64,000 nt of DNA from an uncultured bacterium (GTDB lineage: Bacteria; Chloroflexota; UBA5177; JANWHV01): assembly GCA_963827235.1 (NCBI GenBank), contig CAWHAE010000010.1, positions 320,001 to 384,000 of the forward strand. The letters are read 5' to 3'. Below, piece by piece: positions 8,349 through 25,218 of this stretch. A model generated the notes under the pieces. That model did not search any database, was not told the DNA's origin, and saw only the letters and a program-made list of their open reading frames with translations. How positions within the stretch are numbered: the first letter of the stretch is position 1; each line of letters begins with the position of its first letter. Made by a program: the position numbers and the translations under genes.

Positions 8349-10544
8349 ATGATCGTGCACATGATCGGCAACTCCCACATCGACCCGGTGTGGCTCTGGA
8401 CCTGGCCGGCTGGGGTCGACGAAGCTCTGGCGACATTCCGCGCTGCCGCGGACCGCTGCGATGAGTATCCGGAATTCGTCTTCACTCGTGGAGAAGCCTG
8501 GCTCTACCGGCAGGTCCAGATGCTGGACCCGGTGCTCTTCGAGCGTGTTCGGTCGCTGGTGGCTCGCGGGCAATGGCACGTTACCGGCGGCCAGGTTGTG
8601 CAGCCGGATCTGAACGTGCCCACCGAGGCCGGCCTGCGCAGACAGTTCCTGCATGGCTTGCGCTATTTCGAAGCGACATTCGGCGTGCGGCCAACAATCG
8701 GGTACAACGTGGATTCGTTCGGCCACCCAGGGACACTGCCCGACATTCTCGCGTCCGCGGGTTTCACCGGCTATGTATTCGGGCGACCCACGAGTGCGGA
8801 CATGCCGCTGCCTGCAATCACCTTCCGATGGCGCGGCTCGGGCGGGACCGAGATTCTTGCTTCGCGCATCACTCCCTGGTACCTAACACGCTACGACGAT
8901 CTCAGTTCTGCGATTCACGATGCGGTCGCGGCCGCTGATAGTGACCTTGGGCACGTCATGTGCTTCTTCGGCGTGGGTAATCACGGTGGGGGACCTACCA
9001 AGGGACAGATCGAGTACATCCTCCGGCACCGCCACGCCTTCGACGGCGTTGAGCTGCGGTTCAGCACGCCCGCGGCGTTCTTCCAGGCAGTCGCACCGCT
9101 GCGCGATCGGATTCCCCTGATCACGACGGACCTGCAGCTGACGCCACCCGGCGTATACAGCCTGATGCAGGACATCAAGCAGGAGCAGCGGCGCGGCGAG
9201 CACCTGCTCGCGCAGTGCGACAGGTTGATCGAGCAATTGGCCGGCGATGATGCGGCCCAAGCGACTCTCCGTTGTAGGCTGGACGCGGCCTGGGAGGATC
9301 TGGTTTTCACGCAGTTCCACGACATTCTGGGCGGGTCATCGATTCCGTCCGCATGGAGAGCCACGCGCGCCACCCAAGGCAGAGCGCGGATGACCGGCGA
9401 GGAGATAGCGACGGAGGTGACCAGACGATGGGCACGCCGGGACCTGCCTCCCGTGAACAATCAGCAGATCGTCGTCTACAACCCGGACAGCGAGCAGTGG
9501 ACGGGTATCGTGGAGGCGGAGCCATGGCTTGACTTTGAGTACTGGGGGGAGCGCTGGCTGTCCGACATGGACGGTCACCAAATCCCGTGGCAGCTTGTGC
9601 AGGCAGAATCGCCGCAGTTGGTGCCGGGCATCCTATTTCCTGCCAGGCTCGAGCCCGCCGGCCACACACTCGTCCAGATCCGCTCGGAAGTGCGATCCGA
9701 AGTAGAATACATGTCCTCTGATCTGCATGCCTCCACGACGTCGATGAGTAATAGCCAGATTGAGATGACCCTCGGTCCCGCCGGCCTGCAGGCAATCCGT
9801 GTCAAGGGTCTGGAGATGCTCGCCGGCGAGGGTATGGCGCTAGAGATGCGCGAAGACCTGACCGATTGTTGGAGCTTCGGCGCCGGCAGCTACCGGGACC
9901 CGGTGGTTGGGGCGCTCAGGACCGACGGCGAGTGGGTTGTGGCCGAACGAGGACCGTTGCGCGCACGCGCCTTTGTGGAAGGCTGGATCGGCAGTTCGAG
10001 GGTACGCTGGACCGTCTCGCTTCCGCGCGATAGCGCCCAATTCCTCATGGAGCTGGAAGTGCTGTTTGCCGAACGCAATCGCGCCCTCCAACTCAAGGTG
10101 CCACTTGCCTGGCAGCCGTCTCGCTGGGTCACCGGACTGCCGGGCGGGCAAATGGGGCGTGACTCGGGAGCCCGTGAGTGGCCCATGCACGCCTGGGCGC
10201 GCTCGGCGGGCGTAGAGCAGCGCGTTGCCGTGGTTAGTCACGATTGCTATAGCGCCAGTCTGGAAGACGGGTGCTGGCGGTTCACGCTGTTGCGGAGTCC
10301 GCGGATGGCGAATCTACAGGGCAGCTGGGAATCCGAGGTGCCTGAGCCCAACTCGCAGCGCGCGTGGCATACCGACCAGGGCAACCACACGTTTGCGTTC
10401 ATCGTGCTCTGCGGTGGCGACCTATCGGACCAGTTCCTGCAGCGCACGGCACGGCAGACGGCACAGCCGCCCATCGTCTTCAACCGCTATGAAGGTCTGG
10501 ACCGGCCCCCGTGGGGCAGTGTGCCGCCCAAGCACCTGCGCTAA
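8349..10544 (+). CDS. Alpha-mannosidase, glycoside hydrolase family 38
   Basis: Zn motif 'NSHIDPVWLW', nucleophile 'VDSFGH', 'GVGNHGGGP', 'QFHDILGGS', 'TLLRS'. Confidence 0.9.
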   Translation: MIVHMIGNSHIDPVWLWTWPAGVDEALATFRAAADRCDEYPEFVFTRGEAWLYRQVQMLDPVLFERVRSLVARGQWHVTGGQVVQPDLNVPTEAGLRRQFLHGLRYFEATFGVRPTIGYNVDSFGHPGTLPDILASAGFTGYVFGRPTSADMPLPAITFRWRGSGGTEILASRITPWYLTRYDDLSSAIHDAVAAADSDLGHVMCFFGVGNHGGGPTKGQIEYILRHRHAFDGVELRFSTPAAFFQAVAPLRDRIPLITTDLQLTPPGVYSLMQDIKQEQRRGEHLLAQCDRLIEQLAGDDAAQATLRCRLDAAWEDLVFTQFHDILGGSSIPSAWRATRATQGRARMTGEEIATEVTRRWARRDLPPVNNQQIVVYNPDSEQWTGIVEAEPWLDFEYWGERWLSDMDGHQIPWQLVQAESPQLVPGILFPARLEPAGHTLVQIRSEVRSEVEYMSSDLHASTTSMSNSQIEMTLGPAGLQAIRVKGLEMLAGEGMALEMREDLTDCWSFGAGSYRDPVVGALRTDGEWVVAERGPLRARAFVEGWIGSSRVRWTVSLPRDSAQFLMELEVLFAERNRALQLKVPLAWQPSRWVTGLPGGQMGRDSGAREWPMHAWARSAGVEQRVAVVSHDCYSASLEDGCWRFTLLRSPRMANLQGSWESEVPEPNSQRAWHTDQGNHTFAFIVLCGGDLSDQFLQRTARQTAQPPIVFNRYEGLDRPPWGSVPPKHLR

Positions 10545-10548
10545 CTGC

Positions 10549-10848
10549 TAGCACAGCGGCGCTCGGCCTGGCGGTCAGTCCCGACGGCACGCTGCTGGCC
10601 ACCGGGGACGGGTACGGGATGGTCCAGGTGTGGGACCTGGACCCCACGACGCTGGCGCAGCGCGCCTGCCGCGTTGCCAGTCGCAACCTGACGCGCGCGG
10701 AGTGGCGGGCCTATCTGGGCGACCTCCCCTATCAGAGGACCTGCCCCGGCTTGCCCGCGGGGACATGAGCGGCCGACCATCACGATTGGTCTGCTGGATC
10801 TCCTGCCGATCGCCGCCGCGCGCACTGCCCGCGGTCGCGATCATGAAA
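10549..10848 (+). repeat. 300-bp direct repeat, copy 1 (orphan copy of the last WD40 blade, C-terminus and 3' flank of the STAND gene)
   Basis: Aligns ungapped with 16478-16777; 8 mismatches by manual count. Confidence 0.95.
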
Positions 10849-10930: not shown

Positions 10931-11181
10931 GGAGTGCCTATCCGCGTCAGGACGTCGGCCTCTGTAGACACCTATGCCTGAAGCGGACTCATCAAAGACA
11001 ACGGCCCCGGTCTCGCGCCAAGCATGTGGTTGCACCACGTTGCGCTTCCATAGTGAGCAAGCGCGGCATCGTATTTGCATGCAAGCGTCCGGCTGAACCG
11101 CGAGAGGTCTGGACACCCCCGCAGTGGGTGCGGAAGTGACAGATGAAGAGCACGCGATGGGCGCAAGTGTGCCGTCGGCGC

Positions 11182-11436: not shown

Positions 11437-11757
11437 TCAGTGCCAAAGGGGACAGAGCAGCATGGTGCCGTACCCTGGCCGCGTGCAGGCCGCGAGCGCG
11501 CTCAGGTGGCCCGCCGGCAACTGCACCGAGATCTGCCCGCTTGCGGCCGGGAGCAGAACCCGGTTGCCGAGCGGGTTGAAGCTGCAGGCGACCGGCTGCC
11601 CGCCGGAGAACGTCAAGGGCTCGGGAAAGACGCTGCAGTAAGAGGTGGCGGCGCGTATGGGAGCCGGGTCATGCGCTGCGAGGGCGGGGCTGGCCAGTAG
11701 CCCGGCAGCGAGCAAAGTGGCCAGCGCACGTCGGCTGGGGCGAAGCGTCAAGTTCAT
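11437..11757 (-). CDS. Small secreted protein with 4 Cys, function unknown
   Basis: RBS GAAAGGA; signal peptide 'SRRALATLLAAGLLASPALA'; 106 aa. Confidence 0.7.
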   Translation of the reverse strand: MNLTLRPSRRALATLLAAGLLASPALAAHDPAPIRAATSYCSVFPEPLTFSGGQPVACSFNPLGNRVLLPAASGQISVQLPAGHLSALAACTRPGYGTMLLCPLWH

Positions 11758-12000
11758 GGTCGGATCCTTTCGTTCTTGTCCTTACGGGTGCCGCATGGTG
11801 GTGATCCACCGGGCATCCGTCGTCGCCGTGGGTCATGCGGTGCAGCTGCTGCCTCCCGCTCCCAACGCGGTCTGGCCTCCTTCGACTGATCCTCCTTTCC
11901 CTCGTCTTGCTGGTCGGCTTGGCACGCCCGGCTTGGCAGGAGTACTGCCCGGGACCCTGCGACCAGTCTGCGCTCACCGGCCGGCCCCAACCACGCAAAA

Positions 12001-12032
12001 CCGGCAACGCGACCGGCAAGAGCATCGGCAAG
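12001..12032. promoter_or_regulatory. Three CGGCAA direct repeats at 12-bp period in the divergent promoter
   Basis: CGGCAA at 12002, 12014 and 12026, followed by a TG-C-TATGCT extended -10-like element. Confidence 0.45.
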
Positions 12033-12122
12033 TCTTCCACGGTGTGCTATGCTCGTGCCTGTAGGGCGGAAACGGCCGGTGCACCGCTGCCCCGCTGGGC
12101 GGCAGAGGGACGGGCAGGCGCC

Positions 12123-15100
12123 GTGACCACGCTGTCGGGACCCTCCGAGGACGGGCGCCCGTCTGAGCAGGCGTTCGGCACGCTGTTGCGCGGCTACCGG
12201 CATGCCGCGGGGCTGACTCAGGAAGAGCTGGCCGAGCGGGCCGGTCTCGGAGTGCGCAGCATCAGCGACCTGGAGCGAGGTGCGCCGCACGCGCCGCGCA
12301 AGGACACCGTGGCCCTGCTGGCGGAGGCTTTGGCCCTTGGATTTGCTGAGCGCCGAGCCTTCGAGGCGGCAGCGCGCCGCCTCAGTCGCCCCCCCGTACC
12401 CGACGGAGCAGCTGCCGTAGAGCGGCCCGCGATCTTCGTGTGCTACGCAGGCGAAGATCGCGCCTTCGTGGAACGCCTGCGTGCCGACCTCACCAAGCGC
12501 GGCCTCGCCGACTGGGAGGGACCCCACGGTGCGCCTCCGGGCACCGCCGACTGGGAAGAGGCTGTCCGGGAGGGCATCCGCGCCTGCCAGGCCGTGGTGC
12601 TGGTCGCCTCGCCGGCGGCGCGCCTCTCACGCTTCGTTAAGGGCGAGCTGGCCGTGGCCGAGATGTATCGCCGCCCGATTGTGCCGATCTGGGCCGCCGG
12701 GGAGCAGTGGCTGGACTGCGTGCCGCTCGTCCTGAGCACCGCCCAGTACGTCGATGCCCGCGATCCGCGCTACTCCCAGGCGGTTGAGGAAGCTGCCGCA
12801 GTGCTGAGCGCGCTGGTCGCCGCCATCCCCACCACTGCGCTGAGCAGGCCGGCCGCCGACCGCTCAGGCACTCCGGCGGCCGCGGTGCGCCCGGTTTCCC
12901 CACGCAACCCGTACAAGGGGCTGCGCGCGTTCACCGAGGCGGACGCGGACGACTTCTTCGGGCGTTCCGGCCTGGTCGGCGAGCTGCTCGCGGCGGTCGG
13001 CGATGCCGGCGCGGGGCCGCGCTTCTTGGCCGTGGTCGGCCCCAGCGGCTCGGGCAAGTCCAGTGTCGTGCTGGCCGGCCTCCTGCCTCGCCTGCGGGCC
13101 GGCGCCCTCCCAGGCAGCGCGGGTTGGACCTACCTGCCGCCGCTGCTGCCGGGCGCCCACCCGCTGGAGGCGCTCACTGTTGCCCTGGGCGCCGCCCTGC
13201 CCCTGAGCCTCGCCACGCTGCGCGCCGACCTGGATGCCTCGGAGCGTGGCCTGCACCTGCTGGCGGCCCGCCTCGTGCCCCAGGCAGGCGGCCTCGTGGT
13301 GCTCGTGGTCGACCAGGCCGAGGAGCTGTTCACCCTGACGGCAGAGGAGGAGGAGCGGGAGCAGTTCTTCGCCCTGCTGACGACGGCCGCCGGCGAGCCG
13401 CAGGGCCGCACGCTGGTCGTGCTGACCCTGCGCGCCGACTTCTACGACCGCCCCCTGGCCTACCCGGCGCTCGGCCGGCTGCTGGAGGGGCACAGCAAGG
13501 CGGTGCTGCCCATGGGGCTTGCCGACCTGCGCGCGGCCATCGAGGGACCCGCCGGCCTGGCCGATGTGGGACTGCACTTTGAGGAGCGCCTGGTGGGGGA
13601 CCTGCTCTACGAGGTAGGTGGCCAGCCGGGGGCCCTGCCCCTCCTGCAGTTCACGCTCGATCAGCTCTTCGAGCGACGGCAGGACCACCTGCTGACCCAG
13701 GCGGTCTACGCGGAGCTGGGAGGGGTGCGCGGCGCGCTGGCCCGGCAGGCCGAGCGCACCTACACGCTGCTGCCGTCGGCTGAGCACGGCCGGATGGCCC
13801 GCGCGCTGTTCCTGCGGCTGATCGAGCCGGGGGCCACCGAGCAAGACACCGTCCGCCGCCGCGCCCTGCTGAGCGAGCTGGAGCTGGCCGACCGGCGGCA
13901 GACGGCACTGCTGCGCGCGGTGGTCGATGCCTTCGTGGGGGCCCGGCTGCTCACCACGGCGGAGCATGGGGGCACGACCACCGTGGAGGTGAGCCACGAG
14001 GCGCTGATCCGGGAATGGCAACGGCTGGCGGCCTGGCTGCACGAAGCACGCGAGGACATCCGGCTGCAAGAGGCGATCAGCGCGGATGCGGCGGCATGGG
14101 TCCGGCGGGGCCGTCCGCCCGACAGCCTGTATCGGGGCAGCGTGCTGCAGGAGGCACGGACCTGGGCGGCGCGGAACGTGGCGAGCGCGGAGGAGGTGGC
14201 CTTTCTGGAAGCGGGGGTGGCCGAGGCAGAGCGCCGGGAGGCGGCTGAGCGCGATTCACAGGCGCGCGAGCTGCACCTGGCCCAGGAAGCAGCTGCCGCG
14301 GCCCAGCAGACGGCAGCGGCCAATCGGCGCACCGCCGTACGGTCGCGCGCACTGGCAGGGATGCTGGCACTCTTCCTGCTGGTGTCTGCTGGCCTGAGTG
14401 TGTACGCCTTCAACAAGGCCTCGGATGCCAGCCAGGCCAGGACACGCGCGGCGGCCAGCGCCCGTGAAGCCCAGGCCAATGCACGCGCCGCGAGTCTGGC
14501 CCGTACCACGGCGCTCGGCGAGCGGACCACCGCCCTGGCCGCACTGTCCCGCGAATTGACGCTGCGCGCCGCTGAGTTGCTGGGGAGCCGGACAGGCAGT
14601 CAGACGCAGCTTGCCCTGTTGTTGAGCGCGGAAGCCCTGCACTTGAGCAGCTCAGCAGAGGCGCAGATCAACGTAGTCAGTTTCATCAACCACAACCCAC
14701 GGGTGCGGTCAGTTCTCGGCCCGCAGACCGGCGCCGTGGAGAGCGTGGCCTTCAGCCCCGACGGCACATGGCTGGTCTCACGCAGCAACGTGGGCACGGT
14801 CCAACTGTGGGACGTGGCCGGCGGCCAACCCCTGGCCGCACCCCTCAGCGTGTCCACAAGCACGGTCGAGAGCGTGACCGTCAGCCCCGACGGGAAGACC
14901 CTGGCCCTGAGCAGCGTCGACGGCACCCTGCGGTTCTGGGATGTGGCCCGCCGCCTGCCACACGGCCCGCCCCTCAGGGGGCACATCTTTGGGGATACCC
15001 TGGCCTTCAGCTCCGACGGCACGCTACTCGCCTGCGGCAATGCCGATGGCACGATTCAGGTGTGGGACGTGGTCCGCCTCCAACGCCTTGGCCCGCCCCT

Positions 15101-16697
15101 CGCCGGGCACACCGGCTCCGTGAACAGCATCGCCTTTAGCCCCGACGGCAAGACCCTGGCCTCCGGCGGTGCCGACAACACCATCCGGTTCTGGGACGTG
15201 GCCCGCCGTCAACCCTTGGGTCCGCCCCTCACCGGGCACGCCGGCTCCGTGAACAGCGTCGCCTTCAGCCCCGACGGCAAGACCCTGGCCTCAGGCAGCC
15301 ACGACGACACGATCCGGTTCTGGGACGTGGCCCGCCATCAACCCTTGGGCCAACCGCTGACAGGAGACACCGGCGCAGTGGAGAGCGTGGCCTTCAGCCC
15401 CGACGGCAAGACCATTGCCTCCGGCAGTGCCGACAACACTATCCGGCTGTGGGACGTTGCCCGCCGCCAACCCATGGGTCCGCCCCTCACCGGGCACACC
15501 GGCCCCGTGAACAGCATCGCCTTCAGCCCCGACGGCTCGGCCCTCGTCTCGGGCAGTGCCGACAACACCATCCGGCTCTGGGACGCGGCTGGTCCGCCGT
15601 CGCTTGGTGTGTCCCTGCCCCTCGCCGGGACCACACATGGTGTGAATTCCCTGGCCTTCAGCCCCGACGGCAGGCTGCTGGCCTCCGGCAACATGGACGC
15701 GACCGTCCGGCTGTGGGACATGGCCAGCCGGCACCAGCGGGGTGCCCCCCTCACCGGGCTGACGGGCTTTGTGAACGGCGTGGCCTTCAGCCCCGACGGC
15801 ACGCTGGTGGCCGCCGGCAGCAGGGACGATCACGTTCAGTTCTGGGACGTGGCCAGCGGGCGCCCGCTAGGCGTTCCACTCACCGCGAACACAAACAGCT
15901 TTGGGTATCTGACAGCCGTCAGATTAGGTGGTGTCGATGCCGTGGCCTTCAGCCCCGATGGCACGCTGCTGGCCACCTCCAGCGACGACGGCGAGATCCG
16001 GTTGTGGGACGTGGCCCGCCGCCGGCTTCGCGGGGCGCCCCTCGTCACCAATGGCCAGATTCCGGTGGAGAGTATCACCTTCAGCCCCGACGGGAAGACC
16101 CTCGCCTCCGGCAGCGAAGACGGCACCCTGCGCTTCTGGGACATAGCCCGCCGCCGGCAACTCGGCGCGACCCTGATTGCCAGGGTCGCGCAGGGGGTGG
16201 AAAGTGTCGCCTTCAGCTCCGACGGGAAGACCCTGGCCTCCGGCAGCGATGACGGCACCGTCCAGTTGTGGGACGTGGCCAGCGGGCAGCGGCTCGGCCT
16301 CTCGCTCACAGGGCCCACACAGGCAGTGGCGAACGTGGCCTTCAGCCACGATGGCACGTGGCTGGCCGCGGGCAGCAAGGATGGCACCATCTGGTGCTGG
16401 GACGTGGCCAGCGGCCAACCGTTGGGCGCTCCGCTCATCGCCATCGCCGTGACTCCCTCGAAGGTAGGCGTTTTCATTAGCACGGCGGCGCTCGGCCTGG
16501 CGGTCAGTCCCGACGGCACGCTGCTGGCCACGGGGGACGGGTACGGGATGGTCCAGTTGTGGGACCTGGACCCCACGACGCTGGCGCAGCGCGCCTGCCG
16601 CATTGCCAGTCGCAACCTGACGCGCGCGGAGTGGCGGGCCTATCTGGGCGACCTCCCCTATCAGAAGACCTGCCCCGGCTTGCCCGCGGGGACATGA
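12123..16697 (+). CDS. NLR-like protein: XRE HTH - TIR - nSTAND1-type NTPase - TM - 14 WD40 repeats
   Basis: HTH 'GLTQEELAERAGL..ISDLERG'; TIR 'IFVCYAGED..SRFVKGELAVA'; 'NPYKGLRAF'; Walker A 'GPSGSGKSS'; Walker B 'LVVDQAEE'; 'LRADF'; 'HEALIREW'; TM 'LAGMLALFLLVSAGLSVYAF'; 14 xSxDG..WD repeats. Likely start GTG 12123 (ORF open from 11835). Confidence 0.9.
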   Translation: MTTLSGPSEDGRPSEQAFGTLLRGYRHAAGLTQEELAERAGLGVRSISDLERGAPHAPRKDTVALLAEALALGFAERRAFEAAARRLSRPPVPDGAAAVERPAIFVCYAGEDRAFVERLRADLTKRGLADWEGPHGAPPGTADWEEAVREGIRACQAVVLVASPAARLSRFVKGELAVAEMYRRPIVPIWAAGEQWLDCVPLVLSTAQYVDARDPRYSQAVEEAAAVLSALVAAIPTTALSRPAADRSGTPAAAVRPVSPRNPYKGLRAFTEADADDFFGRSGLVGELLAAVGDAGAGPRFLAVVGPSGSGKSSVVLAGLLPRLRAGALPGSAGWTYLPPLLPGAHPLEALTVALGAALPLSLATLRADLDASERGLHLLAARLVPQAGGLVVLVVDQAEELFTLTAEEEEREQFFALLTTAAGEPQGRTLVVLTLRADFYDRPLAYPALGRLLEGHSKAVLPMGLADLRAAIEGPAGLADVGLHFEERLVGDLLYEVGGQPGALPLLQFTLDQLFERRQDHLLTQAVYAELGGVRGALARQAERTYTLLPSAEHGRMARALFLRLIEPGATEQDTVRRRALLSELELADRRQTALLRAVVDAFVGARLLTTAEHGGTTTVEVSHEALIREWQRLAAWLHEAREDIRLQEAISADAAAWVRRGRPPDSLYRGSVLQEARTWAARNVASAEEVAFLEAGVAEAERREAAERDSQARELHLAQEAAAAAQQTAAANRRTAVRSRALAGMLALFLLVSAGLSVYAFNKASDASQARTRAAASAREAQANARAASLARTTALGERTTALAALSRELTLRAAELLGSRTGSQTQLALLLSAEALHLSSSAEAQINVVSFINHNPRVRSVLGPQTGAVESVAFSPDGTWLVSRSNVGTVQLWDVAGGQPLAAPLSVSTSTVESVTVSPDGKTLALSSVDGTLRFWDVARRLPHGPPLRGHIFGDTLAFSSDGTLLACGNADGTIQVWDVVRLQRLGPPLAGHTGSVNSIAFSPDGKTLASGGADNTIRFWDVARRQPLGPPLTGHAGSVNSVAFSPDGKTLASGSHDDTIRFWDVARHQPLGQPLTGDTGAVESVAFSPDGKTIASGSADNTIRLWDVARRQPMGPPLTGHTGPVNSIAFSPDGSALVSGSADNTIRLWDAAGPPSLGVSLPLAGTTHGVNSLAFSPDGRLLASGNMDATVRLWDMASRHQRGAPLTGLTGFVNGVAFSPDGTLVAAGSRDDHVQFWDVASGRPLGVPLTANTNSFGYLTAVRLGGVDAVAFSPDGTLLATSSDDGEIRLWDVARRRLRGAPLVTNGQIPVESITFSPDGKTLASGSEDGTLRFWDIARRRQLGATLIARVAQGVESVAFSSDGKTLASGSDDGTVQLWDVASGQRLGLSLTGPTQAVANVAFSHDGTWLAAGSKDGTIWCWDVASGQPLGAPLIAIAVTPSKVGVFISTAALGLAVSPDGTLLATGDGYGMVQLWDLDPTTLAQRACRIASRNLTRAEWRAYLGDLPYQKTCPGLPAGT
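14725..16570 (+). repeat. WD40 tandem array, 14 units of about 129 bp
   Basis: GTGAACAGC recurs at 15120 and 15249 (period 129); units 4-7 are highly similar at DNA level. Confidence 0.9.
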
Positions 16698-16777
16698 GCG
16701 GCCGACCATCACGATGGCTCTGCTGGATCTCCTGCCGATCGCCGCCGCGCGCACTGCCCGTGGTCGCGATCATGAAA
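16478..16777 (+). repeat. 300-bp direct repeat, copy 2
   Basis: Matches 10549-10848 at an offset of 5929 bp. Confidence 0.95.
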
Positions 16778-21924: not shown

Positions 21925-22506
21925 CTTCTTCCCTTCTTCGCCTTGATTCCGACACTACTTTGTGAGATTCAATCCGATCGCTTCGCCGCAGGATGGCCGC
22001 ACACGGTGACCTTCGTACATATATCGGACCAGTTATCGGCATCCGTTCATTTTTGGGGGCGCCGCCGCGGGCATCGTGCCCGACGCAAGCCAGGTATCGG
22101 CCGCACTGCGCTCCTCGCTCTTGTGGCCCAGACGTATCGGACGCACCACTCAGTTCGGAGCTCCGGTCGCCGACGTTTCCTGCCACACTGAAGGCGATTC
22201 TACCAGGCTTTCCTAGTCCTCATGTATTTGCACGCGCACCAATACGGTATATCCTACGGTTGGTAAATCGGCGTTTGCCGGCTGGGAGGGTCCTGCTCAA
22301 GCCCGGGATGTCGCGTTGGTATCATGCCACGGACTGGGCCGGCACCAGCTTGAGAATGAAGCCGGCGCTGATCGGATTTCTGACTGCCGCCTGGGAACGT
22401 TCTCGGCCAAGCCTAGATTGGGATCGCTGCGCACATCGAAAATGCCCGGACCGTACCGTATGCCGGAATCGTCGTGCCAAGCCAAAGTACAGTTTGCGAG
22501 GCTCCA

Positions 22507-25218
22507 ATGGCGTGTCTGCATGAAGACGAGAGCCGCTCAGTTGCTGGGCGAGATGATGCGCTCGATGCCGCCCTCTCTGTCGAAGAAGCGCGTGAGGAGC
22601 TGATCGCGTACTGGAAGGCACGCCTAGCCGGGGCGCCGGCATTGCTCGAGCTTCCTGCCGACCATCCGCGCAGTGCTCTACCTTCCGGCCCGAGGGCAAC
22701 TGTTCGCTTCGAGATCCCAGAGGGGATGCTCAACCAGGTTCGGGCCCTCGCGAGCGACAACGAAGCTACCCTGTTCATGACGCTGCTGGCGGCATTCGAC
22801 GTGGTGCTCGCGCGCTATAGCGGACAGACGGACGTGTGCGTCTTCGTGGCAGAGAGAGCTCGGGGCGGGATTTGCTGCCCGCCGGAACAGAGGGATACCG
22901 TCGCTACCAACACGCTCGTCTTCCGGCTAGACCTGGAGGGGAATCCCAGCTTTCTCGCGCTGCTGAGCCGCGTTCGCGAGCAGCTCCTGAGCGACGTGAA
23001 GCATCCGGGGCTATCTCTCGCGCAGCTGGTGGAGACACTACGTCCCCAGCTGAGTCCGGCGTACAATCCGCTCGCGCAGGTGCTCGTCATCATGCATGGC
23101 ATGCCGGCATCCGGCTCGGCGACGACGGGCGTGGAACAGCAATCCTCGCAGCCTGACCTGGACGTAGCCAGGCTCGATCTCGTGCTGCGCCTCACAGAGA
23201 CGGCGACCGGGATCGCGGCGGAGCTGGACTATGCCACCGATCTGTTCGAGCACGCGGCGATCGAGCGACTGGCGGCGCATTTTACGATCCTTCTGGGCGG
23301 GATCATCGCCGAGCCGGACAAGCCGATCTGCACGCTGCCGCTGATGACGCCCGTGGAGCGCCATCACGTGCTCATCGAGTGGAATCAGACTGCCAGCCCC
23401 TATCCATCCGAGAGCTGCCTGCACCAGTTGTTCGAAGAGCAGGTGGAACGCACGCCAGAGTCTGTCGCGCTCGTCTTTGGCGGCGAGCAGCTGTCCTATC
23501 GACAACTCGACGAGCGGGGCAATCAACTGGCATTCCGACTCCGGGAGCTCGGGGTTGGTCCAGAGGTTCTCGTCGGACTGTTCATGCAACGGTCGGTCGA
23601 GGCGTTCGTGTCGGTGATCGGCATTCTCAAGGCAGGCGGTGTATGTGTTCCCTTCGACCCTGGCAACCCGGCTGAACGCCTGGCACGCCTGATGGGCGAT
23701 GCGCGGCCGGCCGTCGTGCTCACGCATCGCAGCCTCGCTCACCAGCTTCCCGATCACTCGGCCGCAACCGTCTTCCTCGACGACCGGCTCGCCGACAGCA
23801 CGCTCTCTAGTGGCCGGCGCGTTCAAAGCGGCGTCACATCGCGGAATCTCGCCTACGTGTTCTTCACTTCGGGCTCGACCGGTAAGCCCAAGGGAGTGAT
23901 GCTGCGGCACAGCGGTCTCTGCAACATGGCGACAAGCCTTTCCGAGATGCTCGGGACCGGAACGTCGAGTCGAGTCTCGCAGCTCGCTTCACTCAGCTTC
24001 GTCGCTTCGCTCTGTGAGATATTCTCGGCACTGTCAAAAGGTGCGACTCTCGTCGCGGCCACACCGGACGAAAACCAGCCGGGACTGCCTTTGTGGCGCT
24101 TTCTGCAGCGACAGTCCGTCTCGATGGCGACGTTTGTGCCGTCTGCCCTGGCGGTCATGCCATCCGACCCGTTGCCCGAGCTCGATACGATAACCGTCAT
24201 GGGCGAGAGGTGTCCCGCGGATCTCGTGCGACGGTGGTCTTCCGGCCGCCGATTCTTCATCGGCTACGGCGCGACCGAGGTCAGCGGCCGCGCGATCATG
24301 TGGCAGGCATCGGCCGCCGCCGAGGCTCCGTTGATCGGCCGGCCGCTGCACAACGTTCGCGCATATGTGATGGACGAGTATGGCCAGCCCGTGCCTGCAG
24401 GTCACACCGGCGAGCTCTATGTCGGCGGCCCGGGAGTGGCACGCGGCTACCTGAATCACGACGAGCTCTCGGCTGAGCGCTTCGTCGCCGATCCGTACTG
24501 CGACGTGCCCGGATCGCGACTCTGCCGGGTCGGCGATCTCGTTCGCTATCGGCCGGACGGCAACCTTGAGTATCTGGGTCGAGCCGACCAGCAAGTAAAG
24601 CTGCGTGGTTATCGAATCGAGCTCGGCGAGATATCGGCTGCCTTGCTCGAGCATCCGAGTGTGGCCAGCTGCGCGATAACCACATATGAATTCGCACCGG
24701 GCAGTCCGGACCTCGTGGCGTACGTGGTCGCCCGCTCGGAGCCGCCGCCATCGGCACAAGCTTTGCGCGACTTCTTGCTGCAGAAGTTACCCGTGTTCAT
24801 GGTGCCGGCGAGGTACATGTATCTGGCGGTACTTCCCTTCACCCCAAACGGGAAACTCGATCGCCCGGCGCTTCCACAGCCGGACGAATCGGAGCCGGCG
24901 GGTTCCGGCACGTACGTGCCTCCGCGCACGGAGCTAGAGGAGCACGTGGCCCACGTCTTCGCGGAAGTCCTCGGCCTGGATCGGATCGGGAGAGACGACG
25001 ACTTCTTCCGGCTCGGCGGTCATTCGTTGCTAGCGGCGCGCGCGATGGCAAGGCTCAGCGATTTGTATGGACTGGAGATTCCGCTGGACGTTCTGTTTAC
25101 GCATCCTACGCTTGGCGCGTTCGCAGAGTATGTCGACGCAGTGGCATGGGTACAGGCGCAGGCTTCGTCAAACTCGACGAGCGCCGGCGGTGCAGGACGG
25201 GTCGAGGAGACCATATGA
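22507..25218 (+). CDS. Monomodular NRPS-like protein: partial C domain - A - PCP - C-terminal docking peptide
   Basis: 'YWKARLAG.P.LLELPADHPR' with no HHxxxDG; A3 'TSGSTGKPKG'; A8 'GRADQQVKLRGYRIELGEI'; A10 'NGKLDR'; PCP 'FFRLGGHSL'; ends 'GRVEETI'. Confidence 0.9.
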   Translation: MACLHEDESRSVAGRDDALDAALSVEEAREELIAYWKARLAGAPALLELPADHPRSALPSGPRATVRFEIPEGMLNQVRALASDNEATLFMTLLAAFDVVLARYSGQTDVCVFVAERARGGICCPPEQRDTVATNTLVFRLDLEGNPSFLALLSRVREQLLSDVKHPGLSLAQLVETLRPQLSPAYNPLAQVLVIMHGMPASGSATTGVEQQSSQPDLDVARLDLVLRLTETATGIAAELDYATDLFEHAAIERLAAHFTILLGGIIAEPDKPICTLPLMTPVERHHVLIEWNQTASPYPSESCLHQLFEEQVERTPESVALVFGGEQLSYRQLDERGNQLAFRLRELGVGPEVLVGLFMQRSVEAFVSVIGILKAGGVCVPFDPGNPAERLARLMGDARPAVVLTHRSLAHQLPDHSAATVFLDDRLADSTLSSGRRVQSGVTSRNLAYVFFTSGSTGKPKGVMLRHSGLCNMATSLSEMLGTGTSSRVSQLASLSFVASLCEIFSALSKGATLVAATPDENQPGLPLWRFLQRQSVSMATFVPSALAVMPSDPLPELDTITVMGERCPADLVRRWSSGRRFFIGYGATEVSGRAIMWQASAAAEAPLIGRPLHNVRAYVMDEYGQPVPAGHTGELYVGGPGVARGYLNHDELSAERFVADPYCDVPGSRLCRVGDLVRYRPDGNLEYLGRADQQVKLRGYRIELGEISAALLEHPSVASCAITTYEFAPGSPDLVAYVVARSEPPPSAQALRDFLLQKLPVFMVPARYMYLAVLPFTPNGKLDRPALPQPDESEPAGSGTYVPPRTELEEHVAHVFAEVLGLDRIGRDDDFFRLGGHSLLAARAMARLSDLYGLEIPLDVLFTHPTLGAFAEYVDAVAWVQAQASSNSTSAGGAGRVEETI

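Follow-up and report, generated by a model that had tools for sequence, protein, structure and literature searches.

A putative single-pass nSTAND1 membrane receptor joining helix-turn-helix and TIR modules to WD40 propellers in an uncultured Chloroflexota bacterium

Introduction

On which side of the membrane does a bacterial STAND protein meet its ligand when a hydrophobic segment lies between its nucleoside triphosphatase (NTPase) and its sensor? This question is raised by a gene at 12123..16697 on the forward strand of a 64,000-nucleotide stretch of DNA (hereafter the window, to which all coordinates refer unless a contig is named), taken from positions 320,001 to 384,000 of contig CAWHAE010000010.1 in assembly GCA_963827235.1, the genome of an uncultured Chloroflexota bacterium. 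The gene encodes a protein of 1,524 amino acids (aa), here called the receptor, in which an XRE-type helix-turn-helix (HTH), a TIR domain and an nSTAND1 NTPase precede two WD40 propellers. Our analysis somewhat favours a single-pass nSTAND1 membrane receptor with its N-terminus inside and its C-terminus outside the cytoplasm (N-in/C-out), in which clustering drives both the TIR and the HTH outputs. What is new here is a conserved membrane span with an outside sensor, a proposal supported by comparison across the family, together with an extra HTH, in a family that is very large and already catalogued.

The nSTAND1 clade was named by Kaur, Iyer, Burroughs and Aravind (eLife 2021, PMC8195603), whose nSTAND1 section reads proteins of the effector-NTPase-FGS type as sensors of invaders. 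A 2026 survey of STAND proteins (PMC13581612) places recognition inside cells, and its main text contains no word starting with "membrane". In the text of Doré et al. 2024, a cytoplasmic or periplasmic location is predicted for some STAND targets diversified by diversity-generating retroelements, and the preprint of Kibby et al. (bioRxiv 2022.07.19.500537) describes a NACHT class with multiple transmembrane (TM) regions that may sense periplasmic signals. We found in the literature, supplements aside, no statement of an nSTAND1 plan with a single membrane pass and an outward sensor; supplementary tables may list transmembrane segments. Within the same scope, nSTAND1 proteins are described computationally only and no experimentally characterised member was found. 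The initial annotation of the window, made from its sequence alone, had known of no characterised protein with the full architecture, and the literature yielded none either.

The receptor gene and its domain plan

The gene lies within an open frame spanning 11835-16697 (+), and its likely start is the GTG codon at 12123, the frame being closed by TGA. The motif GAGGGA is located 12-17 nt 5' of this GTG, and the start fits the best database relatives, which cover 98% of residues 1-760. From the N- to the C-terminus the product consists of the HTH, the TIR domain, nSTAND1, a stalk, a hydrophobic helix, a linker, two WD40 propellers and a tail with a pair of Cys residues. The order XRE-TIR-STAND-coiled region-TM-14 WD40 proposed in the initial annotation was confirmed in every part by Pfam, repeat and hydrophobicity analysis. 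In the Pfam scans, judged against the gathering cut-off of each family, HTH_31 scored 49.7 bits (cut-off 27), HTH_3 44.5 bits (cut-off 23), TIR_2 63.5 bits (cut-off 28) and nSTAND1 384.1 bits (cut-off 27.1), and WD40 was matched in 14 stretches with an E of 1.5e-133.

The nSTAND1 NTPase (12909..14120, +; residues 263-666) aligns with positions 1-378 of the 379 of PF20703 (E 1.4e-114). Both its Walker A motif (13038-13061, +; residues 306-313, GPSGSGKS) and its Walker B motif (13299-13325, +; residues 393-401, VLVVDQAEE) are intact. It is followed by a helical, Arg-rich stalk (14121..14348, +; residues 667-742), modelled as one long helix with a predicted local distance difference test (pLDDT) of 63-83. 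On the far side of the hydrophobic segment lies an Ala-rich helical linker (14418..14720, +; residues 766-866), modelled as helices of low confidence and sharing 50% identity among paralogues. A Pfam scan of stalk, hydrophobic segment and linker (residues 643-862) gave no family match.

TIR and helix-turn-helix modules

The TIR domain (12432..12788, +; residues 104-222; TIR_2 3.3e-17) holds the motif SRFVKGELAVA at residues 169-179, in which Glu175 is encoded by codon 12645-12647. Searched against the PDB as a single sequence with phmmer, the domain gave chance barstar matches only (E 0.1-0.75); a profile was therefore needed, and it was built from the N-termini of ten paralogues. This profile matched AbTIR (1.8e-8) and PdTIR (2.4e-8), plus Cat1, Roq1, RUN1 and SARM1; one SARM1 entry among the structural matches is the E642A mutant. 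The profile alignment pairs Glu175 with the Glu of the "..YEL/KEL" motif of AbTIR and PdTIR, which in AbTIR we take to be the catalytic residue, and the Phe four residues before Glu175 aligns with a Trp of AbTIR. An AlphaFold2 model of residues 1-270 had a mean pLDDT of 79.7 and exceeded 90 across most of the TIR (104-235). Foldseek related the modelled TIR to SARM1 (6.4e-6) and AbTir (2.2e-4), and also to MAL, MyD88, SPARTA, PdTIR, TLR1 and TRR-2. Both the TIR fold and the Glu at the usual catalytic position, as claimed in the initial annotation, are borne out by these comparisons. In the TIRs of 121 near relatives the column of the catalytic Glu is occupied by Glu in 107 and by a Glu one position earlier in 5, and the TIR accompanies nSTAND1 in 120 of the 121. 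Judged from its sequence and its model, the domain looks enzyme-competent.

The XRE-type HTH (12171..12359, +; residues 17-79; HTH_31 4.6e-13, HTH_3 1.6e-11) appears in the same model as five helices at residues 18-88 with pLDDT 86-98. A profile search of it matches solved XRE repressors and controller proteins, and the PADLOC model capH matches the region at 4.6e-6. Within the source genome (8.0 Mb in 21 contigs), a profile derived from the paralogues' HTH matches 50 open frames, 40 of them with a P-loop within 450 aa, and all five frames sampled proved to be HTH-AAA_16-TPR (MalT-like) proteins. By these profile matches the HTH serves about 40 STAND-type NTPases of the source genome as a stock module of output or regulation; for this reason it is most likely a genuine transcriptional module, and a transcriptional role in the receptor is plausible. 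It may regulate its own divergent promoter region. About 30 loci of the source genome (e.g. L091-L095) encode XRE-HTH-AAA_16-MalT-like-TPR proteins of 800-1,200 aa with the receptor's type of HTH, and the HTH coding stretch has dozens of DNA matches, at 70-80% identity, in genomes of the same genus.

This recurrence of the HTH also bears on the first alternative, namely that the receptor is mainly a membrane-tethered STAND transcription regulator, engaged in environmental or cell-cell signalling and not in immunity, with the TIR serving as an oligomerisation scaffold or a minor module. Such a regulator would pair MalT/AfsR-like logic with a ToxR/CadC-like topology and turn an outside signal into altered gene expression via the HTH. 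Relatives reduced to an HTH point in this direction: five of the family representatives described below are HTH-nSTAND1 proteins with only about 85-115 residues ahead of the NTPase, too short for a TIR, and nSTAND1-TM-WD40 relatives with an HTH as their only N-terminal module occur. Further points on this side are the TM-less relatives ending in histidine-kinase modules, a signalling context, as well as the housekeeping genomic setting of the gene and the divergent gene for a small secreted protein that uses the same intergenic region. A scaffold or minor module, however, sits poorly with a catalytic Glu kept in such a large majority of the relatives' TIRs, with solved sequences whose nearest examples are NAD+ hydrolases, and with a TIR that is the constant partner of nSTAND1. 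In relatives the position N-terminal to the TIR is filled by Trypsin_2, an EACC1-type caspase, Pkinase, EAD8 or a second TIR; the nSTAND1 section of Kaur et al. treats this slot as the effector/adaptor slot of conflict systems (PMC8195603), and its occupation by proteases and kinases elsewhere argues against a purely regulatory reading. HTH domains are themselves listed among effector modules by Kaur et al. 2020 (PMC7159879). All considered, we regard the regulator explanation as unlikely.

Membrane segment, sensor and topology

Residues 743-764 (14349..14414, +) form a predicted transmembrane helix, uncharged and with a Kyte-Doolittle score of 2.07. It is the sole strongly hydrophobic 19-mer of the protein, the runner-up scoring 1.71, and it is bounded by R742 and K765, with RRTAVRSR directly before it. 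The 15-residue flanks carry a net charge of +4 on the N side, that is, over the last residues of the stalk, and of +2 on the C side. All eight other full-length paralogues compared have the segment in this position (scores 2.26-2.92), and near-length relatives have a single hydrophobic peak 400-445 aa past Walker A in 114 of 121 cases. An exhaustive HMMER search with the NTPase provided the 150 best representatives at 50% identity; the segment is present in 127 of these (123, plus 4 recovered from a mis-anchored motif search). Averaged over representatives, the net charge of the 15-residue flanks drops from +3.36 (N side) to -0.04 (C side), with N exceeding C in 119 of 123 of them. Across relatives the sequence of the segment drifts and its hydrophobicity is retained.

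Every representative that ends in HisKA/HATPase, GAF or PAS domains (10/10) is without the segment, and histidine-kinase, GAF or PAS domains were found in none of the 26 segment-bearing representatives scanned. The C-termini of these 26 were assigned to FGE-sulfatase in 13, to Beta_helix, TSP3_bac and CHAT+TPR in one each, and were unrecognised in 10. The extracellular solute-binding domain SBP_bac_8 is present in one representative, whose segment is weaker and led by Arg-Arg. A choice-of-anchor Q domain, whose name presumably marks surface or secreted proteins, lies above the cut-off in 6 of the 14 relatives scanned with NCBIfam. The family-wide position of the segment, the charge of its flanks and this pairing with C-terminal modules favour an N-in/C-out single-pass topology, which we consider quite probable from the sequence comparisons, and with it the extracytoplasmic propeller of the initial annotation. 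Since the helix would span the membrane, the propellers would lie outside the cytoplasm and could not auto-inhibit the NTPase by direct contact in the manner of cytosolic NLRs.

Two further groups of relatives were observed. Segment-less TIR-nSTAND1 proteins ending in HisKA or HisKA_3 plus HATPase_c (P0151, P0157, P0163, P0195, P0238, P0254, P0078 and P0082) form the first, some TIR-nSTAND1-histidine-kinase relatives inserting GAF or PAS before the kinase core; we know of no published description of a TIR-STAND-histidine-kinase fusion. In the second, comprising 17 of 250 relatives, a twin-arginine-like TRRxVL motif with a Gly/Ala-rich stretch stands at the position of the segment, mostly ahead of propellers and about 600-900 residues into the protein (P0059, P0086, P0092, P0111, P0141, P0149, P0204 and P0240 among them). 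The motif and stretch may be an internal twin-arginine (Tat) signal anchor, through which a propeller is exported already folded.

The presumed sensor of the receptor consists of 14 WD40 repeats (14721..16586, +; residues 867-1488) that build two seven-bladed propellers. Each repeat is 42-54 residues long, and at the DNA level the array is a 129-bp tandem repeat. In the AlphaFold2 model of residues 694-1524 the blades reach pLDDT 80-96, confidence being limited to the propellers. Foldseek matched them to the 14-bladed bacterial propeller 2ymu (2.3e-54, 40% identity) and then to Apaf-1 (4.7e-40). The protein ends in a conserved C-terminal tail (16587..16694, +) with two Cys about 27 residues apart in the pattern C..NRNLT..EW..Y....PY..TC, for which a Pfam scan found no family match. 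The strict pattern is present in 32 of 49 WD40-bearing relatives, with near-variants in others, and the tail is present in most paralogues.

Several observations weigh against the receptor reading as a whole. With regard to topology, the Kyte-Doolittle score of the receptor is the lowest among the paralogues; AlphaFold2 gave the segment a pLDDT of about 40 and drew no helix there (the model is silent on topology, because segment, linker and tail all have pLDDT 35-50); the density of Cys does not change across the segment (0.48 per 100 aa) and, beyond the tail pair, gives no signal of an outside location; the CHAT+TPR that follows the segment in one representative is not obviously an exported module; and Apaf-1-like WD40 repeats are best known from cytosolic proteins. 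With regard to the enzyme, the Glu is lost in 9 of the 121 relatives' TIRs, and TIR domains can also serve as scaffolds. With regard to defence, PADLOC reported six families for the receptor, none of them an Avs, bNACHT, NLR or Thoeris model, and the surroundings are housekeeping and metabolic genes with no defence island. With regard to transcription, a scan of 11600-12200 for sigma-70 consensus promoters returned no site, as did a terminator scan, and no operator for the receptor HTH was found in the upstream region. The sequence CCGGCAA, present there three times at 12-nt spacing, was rejected as an operator, its count being reached in 32 of 200 shuffles; for similar repeats at two paralogues the count is reached in 37 and 15 of 200 shuffles, and six other promoters have none.

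Part of this evidence would suit a second alternative, a cytosolic sensor like NLR or Avs proteins, whose propellers bind an intracellular protein (e.g. of a phage) and whose hydrophobic helix only anchors it to the membrane, is buried or mediates oligomerisation. Besides the likeness of the propellers to Apaf-1 and the lack of a confident modelled helix, the protein is without an N-terminal signal peptide, and according to the 2026 survey (PMC13581612) the bacterial STAND sensors characterised so far all work within the cell. Yet an uncharged segment of 22 residues that spans the bilayer cannot keep both large domains on one side, and its position, the asymmetry of flank charge and the exclusive pairing with C-terminal modules hold across the 150 representatives. 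A cytosolic sensor is in our judgement improbable, and more so than the regulator considered above.

The gene itself is intact and under selection. Its G+C content at third codon positions (GC3) is 86%, the frame is uninterrupted over 1,524 codons and every motif is preserved. The ratio of nonsynonymous to synonymous substitution rates (dN/dS) against paralogues is about 0.25-0.49 and below 0.5 in every region, so that all parts of the gene evolve under purifying selection; these values together with the GC3 mark it as a living gene. Compared with paralogues region by region, dN/dS gave no sign of positive selection in the sensor (0.32-0.49) relative to the NTPase (0.21-0.36). That the gene is a decaying or non-functional paralogue, its architecture a leftover of domain shuffling, is hardly credible in the face of this intact frame, these motifs, the constraint in each region and the GC3, even though two broken paralogues, further fragments and a 300-nt upstream remnant of the receptor's own 3' end exist.

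Genomic setting and upstream region

Upstream of the receptor gene lie genes for a chaperonin, a LacI regulator, a GT87 glycosyltransferase and a GH38 mannosidase, and downstream those for PNPOx-like, DinB and Ldh_2 proteins and a nonribosomal peptide synthetase (NRPS). The NRPS module (Condensation, AMP-binding and PP-binding; 22474-25218, +) is situated 6 kb downstream. At E<=1e-8, none of the open reading frames (ORFs) flanking the receptor gene is homologous to one flanking a paralogue, and no shared operon partner was found by this comparison.

A candidate promoter with the putative -10-like element TGCTATGCT (12045..12053, +) lies about 70 nt 5' of the start and is flanked by a 14-nt inverted repeat (86% complementary). 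Elements of the form TGnTAnnnT or GGTAnnnT are found 84-155 nt ahead of the HTH in 8 of the 9 other paralogues. Neither a tRNA nor an Rfam family was found in the upstream region. As to expression, no RNA run is listed as containing the stretch, and one DNA run contains a small share of it.

The receptor gene and its upstream region are bracketed by a direct repeat of 300 nt, whose copies (10549..10848, + and 16478..16777, +) are 97% identical at a spacing of 5,929. The second copy covers the gene's 3' end plus the 80 nt that follow. The upstream copy, which corresponds to the last 220 nt of the gene and 80 nt downstream, is a remnant of the receptor's last blade, its tail and the adjoining DNA; it begins 4 nt past the GH38 stop and is readable as an 85-aa ORF (10511-10768). 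This repeat could be what remains of a duplication combined with a deletion, the scar of an insertion or a donor for conversion. In four genomes of the same genus, neither the orthologous locus nor the GH38 flank was recovered. Within 10997-11171, a stretch of about 165 nt recurs at C10:62858, C9:290464 and C9:237123 (contigs of the source genome) with 70-78% identity, and it has no tRNA or Rfam match.

Divergently from the receptor, across an intergenic region of 365 bp (11758-12122), runs a gene (11437..11757, -) whose product of 106 aa carries a signal peptide (SRR...PALAA/HD) as well as four invariant Cys. With a GC3 of 83% the gene looks coding, and in two metagenomic homologues (69% and 56% identity) both the signal peptide and the Cys are conserved. 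No paralogue of it was found beside the other nSTAND1 genes of the source genome. This secreted protein may be a target of the HTH, an outside partner of the receptor or its ligand. Several paralogues, and one related locus, also have a gene for a secreted protein no more than about 1 kb away, which is a tentative lead. Two of them, L005 (C12:981484-982119) and L008 (C10:58789-59373), encode homologous secreted proteins of about 200 aa beside different paralogues (41.5% identity, E 1e-39); apart from this pair, the other secreted neighbours are mutually unrelated.

Paralogues and distribution

The architecture is less rare than the initial annotation had implied, as seven more copies exist in the same genome and dozens in metagenomes. 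The source genome has 35 nSTAND1 matches and at least 10 full-length paralogues, with open frames of 774-1,671 aa; apart from the receptor, seven of the nine full-length others are HTH-TIR-nSTAND1 proteins and two TIR-nSTAND1. Eleven of the 15 TIR_2 matches of the genome fall in nSTAND1 genes. Mean identity among the seven HTH-type paralogues is 67% in the NTPase and 47-49% in the propellers. Among the broken paralogues, a 774-aa frame stops at the membrane segment and another contains an in-frame TGA; further fragments exist. Birth and death of paralogues can be followed at C10:46327-58572, C12:983185-993117, C10:6508-8829 and C12:1205794-1209412; two complete paralogue genes are only 2.7 kb apart, and another locus has additional NTPase fragments downstream. 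In the recent pair L006/L009 dS amounts to 0.22 in the WD40 part, half the value found elsewhere (0.42-0.50), which hints at gene conversion of this part.

Beyond this genome, the HMMER search with the NTPase retrieved 43,245 cluster representatives with a threshold of E<=1e-3, of which 16,913 remained at E<=1e-30. The full HTH-TIR-TM-WD40 plan was present in 36 of 253 proteins examined, a proportion that is not a natural frequency because the set was picked by likeness to the receptor. Some metagenomic copies carry the JGI name "WD40 repeat protein/XRE transcriptional regulator". On contigs of one genome per species, the match extends from the HTH onward in only 2 of 80 related loci; judged by record titles, 56 of the 80 belong to Chloroflexota, 22 to Actinomycetota and 2 to others, and the best matches are all from Chloroflexota. 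At E<=1e-30 the family is present in three of four genomes of the same genus (12, 3 and 1 matches) and in only one of 16 genomes of the same class from other genera. As far as these searches reach, the family is a patchy, lineage-specific expansion; this pattern, the number of paralogues and the greater divergence of the sensor are what a receptor repertoire would show.

Proposed mechanism and significance

A sensor that lies beyond the membrane cannot clamp the NTPase, and activation of the proposed membrane receptor is therefore best pictured as ligand-driven clustering. Receptors would be clustered by a ligand that binds the propellers or by some change in the envelope of the cell, and this clustering would be relayed along stalk, helix and linker. 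The nSTAND1 modules would then oligomerise with NTP on the inner face of the membrane, the gathered TIR domains would form assemblies that consume NAD+ or make a signal by means of Glu175, and oligomerisation would alter the action or occupancy of the N-terminal XRE HTH on DNA. The dual output, the NADase activity and an immune role are what we infer from the domains and their order. The biological role may be defence, the sensing of kin or neighbours in a filamentous community, or surveillance of the envelope.

Perhaps the whole nSTAND1 branch works from the outside in. This is a tentative possibility to which we attach low confidence, and its parts are meant jointly: exchangeable sensors on the outer face (WD40 propellers, C-type-lectin-like FGE, beta-helices or solute-binding domains) would detect phage particles, surface molecules of neighbours or envelope damage before anything enters the cell, through a repertoire of at least ten receptors, eight of them with a dual HTH and TIR answer, and the TIR would provide NAD+-based signalling or suicide. 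Some sensors would perhaps be exported in folded form via the internal twin-arginine signal anchor, and the programme of the HTH possibly includes the divergent small secreted four-Cys protein. If this is true, the eight dual-output receptors would amount to a bacterial hybrid of NLR and Toll-like receptor.

Should most nSTAND1 proteins span the membrane with the sensor outside, they would represent a large class of bacterial surface pattern receptors whose outputs run through TIR, protease, kinase or transcriptional modules, and activation of their STAND switch could not rely on auto-inhibition between sensor and NTPase. The receptor gene offers a clean and intact example with a DNA-binding output, in a genome that holds a whole repertoire.

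Comparison with known systems

The closest kin are the nSTAND1 proteins of Kaur et al. (PMC8195603), which share the NTPase clade and the plan of N-terminal effector, NTPase and C-terminal sensor. Their effectors are TIR, trypsin, caspase, kinase and EAD, their sensors FGE-sulfatase/FGS or repeats, and their genes are likewise multi-copy per genome and found in multicellular lineages. In comparison with the section on nSTAND1 in that paper, which mentions no membrane helix, the receptor adds an XRE HTH and a conserved segment. The NACHT class with multiple TM regions described in the preprint of Kibby et al. differs from the single-pass plan proposed here. Avs1-5 and bNACHT, as described in the sources consulted, have in common with the receptor the logic of sensor, STAND and effector, some with TIR effectors and WD40 or FGE-sulfatase sensors; they are, however, cytosolic and sense phage proteins inside cells, and the NTPase of the receptor belongs to a different clade (nSTAND1).

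The TIR of the receptor finds its best matches of sequence or fold in AbTIR, PdTIR, Thoeris ThsB, SPARTA and Cat1. The ThsB_TIR model scored 13.8 bits against the receptor, below its cut-off of 21.2, and the neighbouring genes encode GH38, the small secreted protein, PNPOx and DinB. Unlike Thoeris, SPARTA and Cat1, the locus has no ThsA-like partner, Argonaute or CRISPR context, and in contrast to other bacterial TIR NAD+ hydrolases and signal makers, activation of this TIR would come from the STAND module to which it is fused.

With regard to DNA binding, MalT and AfsR couple a STAND NTPase to a DNA-binding output, in MalT via a C-terminal LuxR-type HTH, and ToxR, CadC and RodZ have an N-terminal cytoplasmic DNA-binding domain (a winged helix in ToxR and CadC), one membrane helix and an outside domain. 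The receptor would combine the coupling of STAND and DNA binding known from the former with the membrane tethering of the latter; we know of no member of either group that joins the two plans or carries a TIR.

Finally, Toll-like receptors consist of an outside sensor built of repeats, one membrane helix and an inside TIR, and they are activated by ligand-induced clustering. The proposed receptor shares the outside repeat sensor, the single helix and the inside TIR, and the TIRs of MAL, MyD88, TLR1 and TRR-2 match its fold. Toll-like receptors are nevertheless N-out/C-in, with leucine-rich repeats and a C-terminal TIR, whereas the receptor would be N-in/C-out, with WD40 repeats and an N-terminal TIR. 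It adds an NTPase switch and an HTH, and its TIR resembles the enzyme type more than a pure scaffold, having a Glu like that of AbTIR and SARM1. The resemblance to Toll-like receptors is one of logic only: a sensor of repeats on one side of a single membrane helix and a TIR on the other.

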